From positions 34,864-98,863 of the forward strand of contig JACKFQ010000001.1 in assembly GCA_020632395.1 (NCBI GenBank): DNA of 64,000 bases, read 5' to 3'. This document shows, in pieces, positions 5,441 to 14,743 of this stretch. A model generated the notes under the pieces. The model saw nothing but the letters and a program-made list of their open reading frames with translations, was not told the origin of the DNA and did not search any database. Position 1 is the first letter of the stretch. The number at the start of each line of letters is the position of its first letter. The translations under genes and the position numbers were made by a program. This stretch comes from Candidatus Nomurabacteria bacterium (lineage in GTDB: Bacteria > Patescibacteriota > Dojkabacteria > SC72 > JAHDCA01).

Positions 5441-5469
5441 TTGATACGATATGTTAAAATATGTATAAT
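5441..5469 (+). promoter_or_regulatory. Consensus sigma70-type promoter (TTGATA-N17-TATAAT) driving the downstream structured RNA
   Basis: TTGATA at 5441-5446, a 17-nt spacer, then TATAAT at 5464-5469. Predicted TSS is about 5476. Confidence 0.5.
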
Positions 5470-5475
5470 CCCAAC

Positions 5476-5710
5476 AGTAGCGAGCGGTGATAGTGAAAGT
5501 CCGCAAAAAGGAAGTGACAAAGAACAAATTGAATATCAATCGAGTGGCTCACGCAATTGAGGTGGCACCGCGGTAAACTTGAATTCTGCAAAACCAGCTA
5601 CTCCCAGCGTAAATTTGGGAGTACAAGCCAAACTGGACAGGCGACATGACTCCACCAGTTGTTTGCAGGATAAACAATACTCCGACCTTTAGGTCAAAGT
5701 ATTTTATCGT
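5476..5710 (+). ncRNA. rnpB: Structured ncRNA, candidate reduced RNase P RNA
   Basis: 450-nt intergenic gap bracketed by the promoter and terminator. Motifs GUGAAAGUCCG (P4 5' strand-like), GGUGGCACCGCGGUAAAC (cf. GGUGCGGUAAGAGCGCACC / GGCACGGUAAACUCC), GCAAAACC and ACAAUACUCCGACC (cf. ACAGAACCCGGCUUA). P4 pairing not convincingly reconstructed. Confidence 0.4.
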
Positions 5711-5740
5711 CCTCTGATCATCAGGGGATTTTTTCTTTTT
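5711..5740 (+). terminator. Rho-independent terminator
   Basis: Hairpin CCUCUGAUC/AUCAGGGG followed by UUUUUUCUUUUU. Confidence 0.55.
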
Positions 5741-5847: not shown

Positions 5848-8124
5848 GTGATCGCAGTGATGTATCTTTTAAATTATCAAAAAGTAAGAATGGACAGAAT
5901 ATTAGCATCAAAAACAACTGAAATGGTAGGAAAAGAAGTGAAAGTGTCAGGCTGGGTCTCAACGATCAGAGATCATGGACAGCTTGTATTTATTGATCTT
6001 CGTGATTGGTCTGGACGGATCCAACTGGTCATATATCCTGATCAGGAAGAAGCATTTGAGATCGCTAAAGGTCTTGGGGCTGAGTTTGTGATCAGTGCAA
6101 CAGGGATTGTCGTTGAAAGAGATAGCTCACTAGTGAACGAAAAATTAGATACAGGCAAGATCGAGATAAAAGTAGAGAAACTTGAATTGATAAACACCTC
6201 TCTACCGATACCATTTCCTTTGGACTCTGATGGACATGAACTGGATGAAAATCTAAGGTTGAAATATCGATATCTGGATCTTAGGAGGGAGCGATTGAAA
6301 GAGAATATGAAAAAGAAACATAAGCTTCTTCTTGCTGTCCGAAATTGGTTCTCTGAAAATGGTTTCACTGAAGTTATAACTCCTTTGCTAACCAGTACCT
6401 CCCCAGAGGGTGCAAGAGATTTTTATATCCCCTCAAGGATCCACCAGGGGAAGTTCTTCGTACTTCCTCAAGCACCACAGCAGTATAAACAGTTGCTCAT
6501 GGTGGGCGGTGTTGATAGATACTTTCAGATAGCACCTTGCGCGAGAGATGAGGATCCAAGGGCAGATAGACATGCGGGAGTTTTCTATCAGATCGATATC
6601 GAGATCAGTTTCCCAACAATAGATATGATCTTTGGCGTTGCCCAGGAGATGATACGATCTACATATCAATCTGTAGCACCTGAAAAGAAATTGATGGAAT
6701 ACCCCTTCCCACGGATCCCGTATGTTGAGGTATTTGATAGATTTGGTACTGATAAACCTGATCTGAGATTTGGGATGGAGCTGAAAGACCTGACGGAATT
6801 GTTGAAAGGAAAAACTGAATTCAAGATATTTAGTGAATCAGAAACTGTCAAATGTGTTGTCGCTCAGGGATGTGGAGTTTGGAGTAGAAAAGATATCGAT
6901 GAAATGGAGGTATTTGCAAAAGAGAATGGTGCAAAAGGTTTAGCATATGCCAAGGTCGTAGGTTCATCATTCAGTTCGGGTGTTTCAAAATATATCGAAC
7001 CATTTGCAAAAGAGATACTTGAAATTACCAGTGCAAAGGATGGCGATATGCTTTTCTTCGTGGCTGATGATCGTGCCGTGGTAAATAAAGTTCTGGGTGC
7101 TGTAAGAAGTCGCTTAGGTGACATGCTCGGTCTTAAGGACCCGAATCTACTTGCTTTAGTATGGATAACTGACTTTCCATTTTATGAGATGGATGAGAAG
7201 AATGGGAAATTGGATTTTGGTCACAACCCTTTTTCAATGCCCAAAGGTGGTATGGCTGCTTTTGATACTGATGATCCACTTACTATCCAATCACATCAGT
7301 ATGATCTAGCATTAAATGGTTATGAATTGGCATCAGGCTCCATCAGAAATCACGATCCGGAAGTGTTAGTAAAAGCATTTGAAACTGTCGGATACGATCG
7401 TGATGAGGTCATTAAAAGGTTTGGGGGCATGTTCAATGCGTTCCAGTACGGAGCACCTCCTCATGGTGGATGGGCAATAGGAGTTGATAGGATGTTCATG
7501 GTGCTAATCGATGAACCTAATATTCGCGATGTATATGCTTTCCCTAAGAACTCAAATGGTATGGATGTGATGATGAATGCGCCTAGCGAGGCTCCTGAAG
7601 CTGATCTTGATGTTCTAGGTATAGAATTGAAAGATAAGGGGTCGAAGACTGTCAAGAGGATCACAGATCGCCTAGATGCGATGAAGATCAACTACCAGTT
7701 AATGGAACATGAGCCTGTTAGGACATCTGAAGAAGCTGCAAAGATCCGCGGTACAAAATTGAGTGAAGGTGCAAAAGCTATGGTACTGCTGTCGAAAGAA
7801 TACGATAATAAGTTCTACATGGTAGTTATACCTGCTGATAAGCAATTAGATCTGCAGAAAGCCTCAAAATATATAGGGGAAGAAGTTCGAGTCGCATCAG
7901 CAGAGGAGGTCGAGGGGTATACAGGAGTTAAAGTAGGAGGAGTACCACCCTTTGGAAGATTGATGGGTATGGATCTGTTCTACGATAGATCTATGTATTC
8001 AAAGGAAAGATCCGCCTTCAATTGTGGTAGGAAAGATAGATCGATCATAATTCAAACAAAAGATCTTATTCGTGCAGCTCAACCTGATAAAAAGTCAGCT
8101 GATATGGATTTTCTGGTAGATTGA
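5848..8124 (+). CDS. aspS: Aspartyl-tRNA synthetase with a C-terminal YbaK/ProX-type aminoacyl-tRNA deacylase domain (fusion)
   Basis: N-terminal OB domain (VSGWVSTIRDHGQLVFIDLRD); class II motifs FYIPSR, QAPQQYKQLLMVGG, FQIAPCARDED, GGWAIGVDR. About 150 aa of YbaK-like sequence follow the normal AspRS end (MEHEPVRTSEEAAK...GVKVGGVPPFG). GAGGGA SD 9 nt before the GTG start. Confidence 0.85.
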   Translation: MIAVMYLLNYQKVRMDRILASKTTEMVGKEVKVSGWVSTIRDHGQLVFIDLRDWSGRIQLVIYPDQEEAFEIAKGLGAEFVISATGIVVERDSSLVNEKLDTGKIEIKVEKLELINTSLPIPFPLDSDGHELDENLRLKYRYLDLRRERLKENMKKKHKLLLAVRNWFSENGFTEVITPLLTSTSPEGARDFYIPSRIHQGKFFVLPQAPQQYKQLLMVGGVDRYFQIAPCARDEDPRADRHAGVFYQIDIEISFPTIDMIFGVAQEMIRSTYQSVAPEKKLMEYPFPRIPYVEVFDRFGTDKPDLRFGMELKDLTELLKGKTEFKIFSESETVKCVVAQGCGVWSRKDIDEMEVFAKENGAKGLAYAKVVGSSFSSGVSKYIEPFAKEILEITSAKDGDMLFFVADDRAVVNKVLGAVRSRLGDMLGLKDPNLLALVWITDFPFYEMDEKNGKLDFGHNPFSMPKGGMAAFDTDDPLTIQSHQYDLALNGYELASGSIRNHDPEVLVKAFETVGYDRDEVIKRFGGMFNAFQYGAPPHGGWAIGVDRMFMVLIDEPNIRDVYAFPKNSNGMDVMMNAPSEAPEADLDVLGIELKDKGSKTVKRITDRLDAMKINYQLMEHEPVRTSEEAAKIRGTKLSEGAKAMVLLSKEYDNKFYMVVIPADKQLDLQKASKYIGEEVRVASAEEVEGYTGVKVGGVPPFGRLMGMDLFYDRSMYSKERSAFNCGRKDRSIIIQTKDLIRAAQPDKKSADMDFLVD

Positions 8125-8175: not shown

Positions 8176-9138
8176 ATGGTGTACAAGATTCTTACAAATT
8201 CGTTGACCGTTTCGATCTGCCTGATGGTAGTTCTAGTTGTTGGTTTTGTGATCTCCGCATTTGATCTGAGAGATCATTATCCACTGATAATGACTTCCAC
8301 AGAAACCCCAGGGAAAAGTGAAAGATCTCCCGATCTCTCAAATGTGGTTGATCCAGAGATATATCTGATGGAGGAACAGGTCGAGCAGATAAAGGAGGAT
8401 CAGATTGACGCATTCTCATATGTCGCTTTTAATCCTGTGACACAACAACGCTTTGTTTCTCATAACCCTGATGAGAAAGTACCTATCGCTAGCCTGACCA
8501 AATTACTTACTGCCAAGATAGCCCTTGATACATGGGAGTTAGATGACAGATTAGTAGTAGGGGGGGGCGAATTTGATGGACTGGAGTGGACACTCGGATT
8601 AGAGGAGGGAGATGTGATGACTTTTGAAGATGTCCTAAAAGCTATGTTGGTGAGCTCATATAATGATGCAGCAGTTATGGTTGCCACAAATTATCCAGAT
8701 GGGTATGGATCATTCATTGATGAAATGAATGATCGGGCGAACAAACTCGGAATGTTGGGATCCAATTTTACTAATCCTACAGGCTTACATGATGATCAGC
8801 ATTATTCTACTGCCAATGACCTTGTAAAACTGGTGAAATATATCTTGGTCGATAGAAGGATCCTTGAGTACACTAATAGTTATACTGATGAAGTTGAGAT
8901 CGAGAGGAACGGTGAGATCTTGAAGGTTGGGCTTCTCTCTACAAATCAGTTACTAGGTACAGATCCTTATATCAAAGGACTAAAGACTGGTTATACTAAG
9001 GAGTCTGGGCCATCATTTATCGGTTACTATGATGCTGGAGAACAGAATCAACTTGTGACTATAGTACTGAACGCAGACGAGGATAGATTTAAGACCACTG
9101 CAAACTTAGTTGACCTCCTTCGAGCTTCGTTTAGGTGA
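8176..9138 (+). CDS. dacA: Serine-type D-Ala-D-Ala carboxypeptidase (PBP5/6-like, peptidase S11)
   Basis: N-terminal TM; SxxK (ASLTKLL), SxN (SSYNDAA) and KTG (KTGYT) motifs. Confidence 0.8.
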   Translation: MVYKILTNSLTVSICLMVVLVVGFVISAFDLRDHYPLIMTSTETPGKSERSPDLSNVVDPEIYLMEEQVEQIKEDQIDAFSYVAFNPVTQQRFVSHNPDEKVPIASLTKLLTAKIALDTWELDDRLVVGGGEFDGLEWTLGLEEGDVMTFEDVLKAMLVSSYNDAAVMVATNYPDGYGSFIDEMNDRANKLGMLGSNFTNPTGLHDDQHYSTANDLVKLVKYILVDRRILEYTNSYTDEVEIERNGEILKVGLLSTNQLLGTDPYIKGLKTGYTKESGPSFIGYYDAGEQNQLVTIVLNADEDRFKTTANLVDLLRASFR

Positions 9139-13918: not shown

Positions 13919-14743
13919 GTGATGGTCGAACAAATCATGGGATATGACCCCTTTAATATGTTTCTGTTTCTTTCTGTAATGATCCTACTTGGGTTTTTTG
14001 TACTTCTATTCGGAGTATCAATCTTCCTGAAGAATAATAATGTGGTAGATCTCGGCTGGGGCTTAGGATTTCCATTATTGGCTTGGATGATCTATTTCTT
14101 CGATGAAAATGTAACTTCAGTACAGATGATCTTAAATACGCTTGTCACAATATGGGGTTTGAGATTGACGATATATTTAGCCATTAGAAGTTTTAAAGCC
14201 GGAGAAGATTGGCGCTATCGAAATTTGCGAAAATCGTGGTATCAAAATTACTATATTAATGCATTTCTCAAGATCTATATGCTTCAAGCGATCTCAATGT
14301 TGATAGTCACCCTCCCTTTGATCTATGTCGCCGGAATAGATAGCAACCGTATAAGCATCGTACAAGCAACATTCATCCTGATATGGACGATCGGATTCTA
14401 CCTAGAGAGCCTTGCTGATCTTCAGTTATATCAATTCAAGTCAAACTCTGAAAATAATGGGAGGCTCCTTACAAAAGGAGTTTGGGGGTTATCGAGACAT
14501 CCGAACTATCTTGGTGAAATGATCATGTGGTGGTCAGTAGCCATTATTTCGGTAAGTGATCTTAGTTCAATATGGGTTCTGGTCGCACCATTTTTCCTAA
14601 CAATCATGATCTATAAAGTGACAGGAGTGAAGCTAATGGAGAAGAAACTGAAAGGATACGAAGGATATATTGACTATATGAGAAAAACTAGAGCGGTGCT
14701 ACCAAATCTTAGACTTGGATCGCAAGAGGCTCAAGTCGCGTAA
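13919..14743 (+). CDS. DUF1295 / steroid 5-alpha-reductase-ICMT-like membrane protein
   Basis: Multi-TM; C-terminal signature GVWGLSRHPNYLGEMIMWW typical of the family. Confidence 0.65.
   Translation: MMVEQIMGYDPFNMFLFLSVMILLGFFVLLFGVSIFLKNNNVVDLGWGLGFPLLAWMIYFFDENVTSVQMILNTLVTIWGLRLTIYLAIRSFKAGEDWRYRNLRKSWYQNYYINAFLKIYMLQAISMLIVTLPLIYVAGIDSNRISIVQATFILIWTIGFYLESLADLQLYQFKSNSENNGRLLTKGVWGLSRHPNYLGEMIMWWSVAIISVSDLSSIWVLVAPFFLTIMIYKVTGVKLMEKKLKGYEGYIDYMRKTRAVLPNLRLGSQEAQVA

Follow-up and report, generated by a model that had tools for sequence, protein, structure and literature searches.

The window analyzed here, a stretch of 64,000 nucleotides from contig JACKFQ010000001.1 of a Candidatus Nomurabacteria bacterium, carries the gene order RecA, RecX, RecJ, AspRS::edit, Peptidase_S11, a 433-amino-acid (aa) gene without known family, and GluRS, an order that we also found in the closest long-contig relative (L090; loci of relatives are given as L numbers throughout). 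The gene of interest, aspS::edit, encodes an aspartyl-tRNA synthetase (AspRS) whose C-terminus continues into a predicted aminoacyl-tRNA deacylase of the YeaK/ProXp-ST1 type, here termed the edit domain. It forms one continuous open reading frame (ORF) with no internal stop or frame break, and its true start is probably the ATG at 5890 (MDRILASK...), because homologues begin there. The ORF and the parts of its product are:

5848 to 8124, + strand: aspS::edit fusion ORF, 758 aa from the GTG at 5848, or 744 aa from the ATG at 5890
5938 to 6192, + strand: N-terminal OB-fold anticodon-binding domain of AspRS (Pfam tRNA_anti-codon), aa 31–115
6244 to 7551, + strand: class IIb catalytic core (Pfam tRNA-synt_2, 341 bits), aa 133–568, interrupted by the GAD insertion
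6835 to 7095, + strand: GAD insertion domain (Pfam), aa 330–416, a hallmark of bacterial-type AspRS that is missing from the class B relatives described below
7552 to 7635, + strand: bacterial AspRS C-terminal tail, aa 569–596 (...NAPSEAPEADLDVLGIEL), at the end of which (aa 596) the NF001750 match stops
7636 to 8121, + strand: predicted YeaK/ProXp-ST1-like aminoacyl-tRNA deacylase domain, aa 597–758, from profile, sequence, and model comparisons
7708 to 8073, + strand: PF04073 (tRNA_edit) match, aa 621–742, profile positions 1–122 of 123, score 93 bits (cutoff 25.5), E = 1.4e-26
7774 to 7776, + strand: Lys643 (in 'GAKAM'), a lysine that is invariant at the catalytic site throughout the INS superfamily
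7936 to 7950, + strand: GXXXP loop (G697-G-V-P-P701)

The AspRS part is complete and of bacterial type, matching the NCBIfam aspS equivalog NF001750 over aa 23–596 (700 bits, cutoff 443) and the bacterial-type AspRS model TIGR00459 (604 bits, cutoff 374). Given the span of the NF001750 match, the ORF runs about 162 aa past the normal end of an AspRS, in keeping with a first-pass annotation of the same DNA, which had reported a single ORF with an extension of about 170 aa. The best explanation of the gene is that it is the cell's housekeeping, bacterial-type AspRS. In the OB domain, the loop 'IRDHGQ' has a His at a position that is also His in 5W25 and 4RMF, the Asp/Asn ligases of mycobacteria, and Leu in the E. 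coli enzyme. We take the His of this RDHG loop to be an anticodon-domain determinant of non-discriminating AspRS; being one position, it is only suggestive of a non-discriminating enzyme in the window.

The first-pass annotation had further assigned the extension to the YbaK/ProX type, that is, to Cys/Ala-tRNA(Pro) deacylases. The broader part of this assignment stood, in that the C-terminal part matched PF04073 well above significance (93 bits) and a deacylase of the INS/YbaK superfamily is fused to AspRS; the narrower part did not, the nearest type being YeaK/ProXp-ST1. E. coli YeaK (the yeaK product of MG1655, a protein without a solved structure) aligned to the window domain with 35% identity over 154 aa in BLASTP (93.6 bits, E = 1e-29) and with a probability of 99.8% in hhalign, compared with single-sequence scores of 31 bits for E. 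coli YbaK, 15 bits for ProXp-ala, and 45 bits for the ProXp-x 2CX5. When a family profile made from the window domain and 33 free-standing relatives was run against solved chains, 3OP6 was the best match by far (E = 7e-32) and all others scored 1e-18 or weaker, with YbaK, APE2540, ProXp-x, and ProXp-ala between 1e-18 and 3e-11. Judged by these comparisons, E. coli YeaK/ProXp-ST1 is the closest characterized relative of the window domain when set against YbaK, ProXp-ala, and ProXp-x, ProXp-ST2 lying outside the comparison. YeaK deacylates Ser- and Thr-mischarged tRNAs (PMC11295145, PMC7373986). It resembles the window domain in length, in its Lys, in its GXXXP loop (GAIPP in YeaK, GGVPP here), and in predicted fold, and differs in being a single-domain trans factor, whereas the window domain is a covalent C-terminal part of AspRS. 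The profile's best solved match, PDB 3OP6 (Legionella pneumophila lpg1207, an uncharacterized 'oligo-nucleotide binding protein'), has the same fold, is free-standing, and is without a published function.

Other identities for the edit domain were considered and rejected. YbaK proper, the Cys-tRNA(Pro) deacylase, was discarded on both of its equivalog cutoffs (56 against 153 bits for TIGR00011, 19 against 243 bits for NF007951). ProXp-ala gave single-sequence E values of 0.14 (Caulobacter crescentus 5VXB) and 0.05 (human PRORSD1, 8HUZ), and with the family profile (3e-11 for 5VXB, 1e-5 for 8HUZ) it remained far behind 3OP6 and YeaK; the 'Ala-tRNA(Pro) deacylase' label that JGI attaches to relatives is an automatic name, real similarity to ProXp-ala being weak. 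The ProXp-x of Thermus thermophilus (2CX5) reached 45 bits by single sequence and 62 bits by profile, with YeaK and 3OP6 scoring higher, and an affiliation to APE2540 (1WDV)/ProXp-x, drawn from a single-sequence PDB search headed by 1WDV, 3OP6, and 2CX5, was overturned by the family profile and the YeaK comparison.

The fusion is not confined to the window. When the full protein was used as query, 42 distinct clusters of fusions (735–771 aa, 51%–73% identity) came up beside non-fused AspRS of 582–625 aa. An alignment spanning the junction was scanned against GTDB species-representative genomes and yielded 405 confirmed relatives, the best 80 loci of which were analyzed by local hidden Markov models (HMMs). 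Among these 80 loci, 57 were fused, complete genomes included (for example CP129470.1 and AP024679.1), and about 23 had a free-standing edit gene. By the AspRS backbone, fused genes divide into class A (bacterial AspRS with GAD plus edit, the window type; about 8 of the 80 loci), class B (bacterial AspRS without GAD plus edit; 11 loci), and class C (archaeal-type AspRS plus edit, ~600 aa; about 38 loci), the cores of class C passing the NCBI archaeal-type 'aspartate--tRNA(Asn) ligase' model with 454–493 bits against a cutoff of 353. Classes A and B were found in Patescibacteria (the Candidate Phyla Radiation, CPR), under record names such as Dojkabacteria, Shapirobacteria, and Chisholmbacteria; among the bearers of class C are complete Dojkabacteria genomes, Patescibacteria BroJett019, and many Chlamydiota. 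A protein search with the fusion of Parachlamydiaceae HS-T3 listed 120 clusters, all 120 with the same three-domain architecture (597–618 aa, 71%–100% identical). Databases name the fusion proteins plain AspRS, and KKU91974.1 is annotated as a nondiscriminating AspRS. One candidate for the closest free-standing homologue, protein P0122, was rejected as a contig-edge fragment of a fusion.

The survey of related genomes that the first-pass annotation had called for therefore found the same fusion recurring in CPR lineages and Parachlamydiaceae, and it also bears on whether a frameshift or assembly error could have joined aspS to a separate downstream ybaK-like gene. Although the two genes stand next to each other unfused in some genomes (L074), the single continuous ORF, the 42 independent clusters at 51%–73% identity, the 57 fused GTDB genes, and the constant length of 120 chlamydial clusters leave a negligible chance for such an artefact.

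Two aspects of this distribution may be recorded beside it. Bacterial-type AspRS without GAD is common in Dojkabacteria-like CPR genomes, with or without an editing domain (L012–L014, L016, L018, L019, L022, L023, L025, L027, L084, and L006:3832–5217, − strand), and is matched by NF001750 in two stretches with a score still above the cutoff. In a Parachlamydiaceae locus (L089:11852–13399) the fusion gene lies between a shikimate-pathway cluster and a gene for a TLC ATP/ADP translocase and lacks translation-related synteny, in contrast to the CPR loci; the records of Parachlamydiaceae bacterium HS-T3 and Chlamydiales bacterium STE3 are without a label as metagenome-assembled genomes and may represent cultured strains.

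Several lines of evidence bear on whether the appended domain is an enzyme. The window domain keeps all 11 family-invariant positions (H25, S31, R38, G45, K47, G101, P105, G107, F128, S136, and D143), and across 342 aligned domains the Lys, the loop Gly, and the final loop Pro are invariant, the Pro before it being at least 94% conserved. Fused domains of classes A, B, and C share these invariants with 233 free-standing proteins. Both the catalytic Lys and the GXXXP loop have described roles in the INS superfamily (PMC11286415). An AlphaFold model of the domain by itself (mean predicted local distance difference test score, pLDDT, of 93) superimposed on 1WDV, 2CX5, 1DBU, 1VKI, and 2DXA with template-modeling (TM) scores of 0.79–0.83 and on 3OP6 with 0.70, so that the predicted fold is YbaK-like α/β. 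A YeaK-family deacylase predicted to be catalytically intact is the best explanation of the appended domain. As judged from sequence conservation, the domain was also shown to be under purifying selection; mean identity of edit domain versus core was 71% versus 74% in the 120 chlamydial clusters and 50% versus 63% in class A, where the edit domain is therefore moderately lower.

A non-catalytic appendage, serving to bind or hand off the tRNA acceptor end (e.g., to GatCAB or EF-Tu) or as a regulatory module, is thus hard to reconcile with the invariance of the Lys, the GXXXP Gly, and the final Pro in 342 of 342 domains, the other invariants being strict in the three fused classes, because a module for binding only would not need catalytic invariants. 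INS-fold proteins do bind tRNA 3' ends, and a C-terminal fusion of AspRS to a transamidation partner exists in AspRS-GatC (NF009460), and yet we regard this reading as highly improbable. AspRS-GatC resembles the window protein in having an extra C-terminal module that acts on the aminoacyl-tRNA product of AspRS, and differs in that the module is GatC, a transamidosome subunit, and not a deacylase; the window protein scored 437 bits against the NF009460 cutoff of 1379, via its AspRS part alone.

To survey which proteins the domain is joined to, 1.84 billion representatives were searched exhaustively with the domain by phmmer, and the top 150 of the 2549 relatives obtained were inspected. About 23 of these best 150 were AspRS fusions or fragments thereof, and none of the 150 was fused to a synthetase other than AspRS; the non-synthetase partners were Peptidase_S11, redoxin, the GmrSD N-domain, and tandem copies of the edit domain itself. 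Because the fusion is recurrent and AspRS is the sole synthetase partner among the representatives inspected, a functional link between the domain and AspRS is indicated, as the first-pass annotation had supposed.

We claim at least two independent fusion events, one on a bacterial-type and one on an archaeal-type backbone, based on comparison of junctions, of nearest-neighbor domains, and of core and domain identities within class C. The bacterial-type junction keeps the whole AspRS tail (...APSE...L..LGI.L), followed by about 5 residues and helix 1 of the domain, and the archaeal-type junction follows ...FP(S/R)D..R via 15–20 residues. The nearest domains to those of class A are in class B; for class C the nearest are free-standing proteins and neither A nor B. 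Identities of core and domain rise and fall together inside class C, where fused AspRS genes are interspersed with unfused ones. These comparisons of nearest-neighbor identities, backbone type, and junction sequences were used instead of a tree. Unfused adjacent intermediates and differently fused arrangements were also found. At L074:53–3112, two tandem archaeal-type AspRS paralogues (427 and 452 aa, 37% identity) precede an overlapping but separate edit gene (a 182-aa stop-to-stop ORF), an arrangement that may represent a discriminating/non-discriminating AspRS pair with a trans editor. In locus L006, recJ is accompanied by an aspS without GAD, which lies on the opposite strand, and by edit::Peptidase_S11; the locus corresponds to that of the window, with the domain on the other neighbor. 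Two unrelated free-standing genes lie 1.5–3.5 kb from an archaeal-type aspS in neighborhoods rich in aminoacyl-tRNA synthetases (aaRSs; L091–96). Separately, proteins P0242 (448 aa) and P0301 (303 aa) consist of three and two tandem YeaK-like edit domains, respectively, and nothing else.

We propose that the tethered deacylase proofreads the products of AspRS, and assign this reading a probability of about one half. A YeaK/ProXp-ST1-family deacylase, permanently joined to AspRS through a flexible C-terminal tail, would sample the 3' end of tRNA-Asp post-transfer, after aminoacylation, and that of tRNA-Asn too if the enzyme is non-discriminating, either in cis, from one subunit of the AspRS dimer to the other, or by recapturing the released tRNA, and would then hydrolyze the non-cognate aminoacyl ester. 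Homology with YeaK suggests Ser/Thr-like residues as the substrate, and the likeliest targets by homology would be small polar or β-hydroxy residues (Ser, Thr) or analogues, this being the least certain step. Proofreading in cis, one of the functions that the first-pass annotation had suggested, is likewise a proposal. In the full-length model (pLDDT 87, predicted TM score 0.73) both halves are confident, and the low pLDDT of the AspRS tail (57–74) suggests that it serves as a flexible tether of about 30 residues. There is precedent for a benefit of fusion, in that the ProXp-ala-ProRS fusion of Trypanosoma brucei deacylates better than the isolated domain (PMC11286415).

Known combinations of an INS module with a class II synthetase are the ProXp-ala-ProRS of protists (Plasmodium, Trypanosoma, and Leishmania) and the INS domain of bacterial ProRS. 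In these, the module is N-terminal or inserted and belongs to the ProXp-ala/INS clades, and misactivation of Ala by ProRS is well established; the window fusion has a C-terminal module of the YeaK clade, carried by AspRS, a synthetase not known to need editing. According to one review, INS-superfamily members other than the INS domain of ProRS are single-domain proteins (PMC11295145). Another, which counts 10 of 23 aaRSs as having a described editing activity, does not name AspRS among them (PMC7373986), which agrees with the statement in the first-pass annotation that AspRS has no known editing domain. A literature search for AspRS-INS, AspRS-YbaK, or AspRS-YeaK fusions found no paper. What is new here is that an editing module of a known family sits on a synthetase without described editing, in sequences that are public but unremarked.

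Several points weigh against proofreading of AspRS products. To our knowledge AspRS does not mischarge, and we know of no misactivated amino acid that it would need to have cleared. The fused domains show no remodeling of the pocket relative to their free-standing relatives, so that their sequence gives no hint of an AspRS-specific substrate: residues specific to fused domains were sought among the aligned domains with nothing informative found, pocket-like positions being alike, and in the AspRS core no informative position setting fused proteins apart from their non-fused sisters came out either. Since the same domain also joins Peptidase_S11, redoxin, and the GmrSD N-domain, some of the fusions probably arose by chance between genes that happen to be adjacent in compact genomes. 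Of 23 free-standing GTDB loci, only 2 have an aspS no more than 10 kb away (the other 21 are not near one), and a neighbor-joining tree of 154 domains with 100 bootstraps had no supported deep nodes and was not used. Lastly, the broad tRNA specificity reported for E. coli YeaK suits a general trans factor (PMC11295145).

This last point leads to a possible alternative that we hold with less confidence, namely that the domain is a general trans-editing factor merely tethered to AspRS, clearing Ser/Thr-type mischarged tRNAs made by ThrRS, AlaRS, ValRS, IleRS, and LysRS in the manner of E. coli YeaK, with AspRS, as a dimeric, abundant, tRNA-binding protein, supplying just co-expression, stability, dimerization, or local tRNA concentration. 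The broad specificity of YeaK/ProXp-ST1 (PMC11295145, PMC7373986), the likeness of fused and free domains at invariant and pocket-like positions, the joining of the domain to unrelated neighbors, and one free-standing homologue inside a mixed aaRS cluster (thrS...tyrS/trpS-edit-hisS...glyS) are all consistent with it. Appended dimerization domains, moreover, are known to boost plant ProXp-ala (PMC9425024, discussed in PMC11286415), and the N-terminal domain of T. brucei MCP3 gives dimerization with a marginal gain in catalysis and tRNA binding (PMC11286415). However, AspRS is the sole synthetase partner among the representatives examined, on two unrelated backbones and in two phyla, and a generic scaffold leaves unexplained why LysRS, AsnRS, ThrRS, and others never partner with the domain.

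The 490-nucleotide (nt) spacer between recJ and aspS contains the following predicted elements:

5441 to 5469, + strand: sigma-70-like promoter TTGATA-17-TATAAT (11 of 12 matches), which starts the leader
5476 to 5739, + strand: reduced T-box-like leader
5484 to 5504, + strand: leader hairpin
5516 to 5518, + strand: putative specifier GAC, inside 'GUGACA'
5557 to 5573, + strand: T-box motif 'UUGAGGUGGCACCGCGG', with bulge UGGCACC at 5563–5569
about 5577 to 5705, + strand: lineage-specific insertion of ~130 nt in the antiterminator loop, present in the window copy and not in the ten relatives named below
5706 to 5715, + strand: 3' antiterminator strand 'AUCGUCCUCU'
5709 to 5729, + strand: terminator, followed by a U-run to 5739

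On sequence grounds, the gene is regulated as an aspS, by tRNA-Asp, via this predicted T-box-like leader, as indicated by the leader's antiterminator, probable Asp specifier, and UGGC bulge. No match to the Rfam T-box was obtained in the window at the gathering threshold or, on the leader, in E-value mode, and the window leader was recognized through relatives only: ten class A/B relatives (L009, L010/L090, L011–L014, L016, L018, and L019) have the same elements without the insertion, 44–101 nt upstream of the fusion gene. In L010, RF00230 aligned end to end with 34.6 bits against a gathering score of 93 (E = 1.8e-6 in a small search) with 82 Stem I positions deleted, and it is the absence of most of Stem I that keeps these leaders under the gathering score. 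RNAalifold on nine relatives' leaders gave the canonical antiterminator of 4 bp, the bulge UGGCACC, and 5 bp, with no pair broken and three pairs with compensatory changes. The putative specifier is GAC in 10 of 11 class A/B leaders (window included) and GAU, a synonymous Asp switch, in L012; UGGC, which would pair with G73, is present in all 11. As controls, UGGU stands upstream of a TyrRS-like gene and UGGC upstream of a TrpRS-like gene. Promoter-like sites in the leader region were no more numerous than in shuffles, and the promoter at 5441–5469 is credited because its position is conserved in relatives' leaders.

Compared with T-box RF00230, including its reduced or short Stem I forms, the leader shares the antiterminator and its 7-nt UGGN bulge, the competing terminator, and a codon-like specifier that fits the synthetase, and differs in the absence of most of Stem I and, in the window copy, in the ~130-nt antiterminator-loop insertion. 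Further CPR T-box motifs were seen at L031 (− strand, ~17859), L038 (− strand, ~10128), L069 (+ strand, 8893), L035 (+ strand, 8665), and L078, preceding TyrRS-like (UGGU), TrpRS-like (UGGC), and archaeal-type AspRS::edit (UGGC) genes; at the Rfam gathering threshold no T-box was reported in L031, L035, or L069. A literature search found no paper on a CPR T-box. These predicted leaders would mean that T-box-like control exists in CPR in forms missed by the Rfam threshold.

How the fusion relates to asparagine charging was also considered. No asnS, glnS, or gatCAB was found within the 64-kb window, and its tRNA-Asn and tRNA-Gln genes, which the first-pass annotation had cited for an indirect Asn/Gln pathway, are uninformative on the pathway. 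When the window and related loci totaling ~1.2 Mb were scanned by regex and HMM for GatA, GatB, GlnRS, and AsnRS, the only finds were two AsnRS genes, both genuine (~500 bits against a cutoff of 414): one at L036:11036–12370, 450 bp downstream of AspRS::edit in a complete Dojkabacteria genome, and one at L023:17872–19203, ~7 kb from the fusion. The direct Asn pathway thus coexists with the fusion in these two CPR genomes, which argues against the indirect pathway as a general rule for fusion bearers. A GatA gene lies near a free-standing edit form in L091, a locus outside the ~1.2 Mb scanned.

These data bear on a further alternative, in which the domain would strip Asp from tRNA-Asn charged by a relaxed, non-discriminating-like AspRS, giving effective discrimination where AsnRS is present or a fail-safe for Asp-tRNA(Asn) that escapes GatCAB. 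The AsnRS genes close to the fusion in L036 and L023 and the His that the window AspRS shares with Asp/Asn-charging enzymes speak for it, and release of Asp-tRNA(Asn) is a recognized fidelity hazard (PMC3367201). All archaeal-type partners also pass the 'aspartate--tRNA(Asn) ligase' model, but that NCBIfam name spans all archaeal-type AspRS and so provides no test of discrimination. On the other hand, the YeaK-family residues are kept, with no basic residue gained that might bind the side-chain carboxylate; the window leader, with its GAC/GAU specifier, is predicted to sense tRNA-Asp; and in the organism with the free-standing form that has GatA, hydrolysis of a pathway intermediate would be wasteful. 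We therefore consider this alternative unlikely.

A stronger form of the proofreading proposal, which we regard as rather doubtful, is that AspRS of reduced-genome lineages has a real and so far unrecognized fidelity problem for which a YeaK-type deacylase was repeatedly recruited as a dedicated editor. One possibility within it is Asp-tRNA(Asn) hydrolysis that lets a relaxed AspRS coexist with AsnRS; another is the clearing of a β-hydroxy or acidic Asp analogue (β-hydroxyaspartate), or of Ser/Thr, from tRNA-Asp. If it were true, AspRS would be a further synthetase with post-transfer editing beyond the 10 described, and would be suggested as a physiological partner of some poorly understood YeaK-family members. 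More generally, a YeaK-type module appears to have been taken up at least twice by AspRS and then held under purifying selection in many CPR lineages and in a large Parachlamydiaceae family of high conservation, which implies either AspRS errors that matter in these organisms or a cooperation between the YeaK family and AspRS that has so far gone unrecognized. The question is directly testable, as the proteins are small enough to express and the catalytic Lys gives a clean mutant, and the fusion could help to assign the physiological role of YeaK/ProXp-ST1 relatives.

Downstream of the fusion, the syntenic neighbor is:

8176 to 9138, + strand: Peptidase_S11 (D-Ala-D-Ala carboxypeptidase) gene

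Its product begins in a hydrophobic stretch, possibly a membrane anchor. An edit domain at the N-terminus of Peptidase_S11 was seen at L006:5309–6769 and L007:1986–3446 (P0349) and also in P0319; if the stretch is a membrane anchor, a cytoplasmic deacylase in edit::S11 would be membrane-tethered. In L090, a heliorhodopsin gene (PF18761; L090:17459–18220) lies a few kb downstream of GluRS, roughly where the window has the ORF at 13919–14743.

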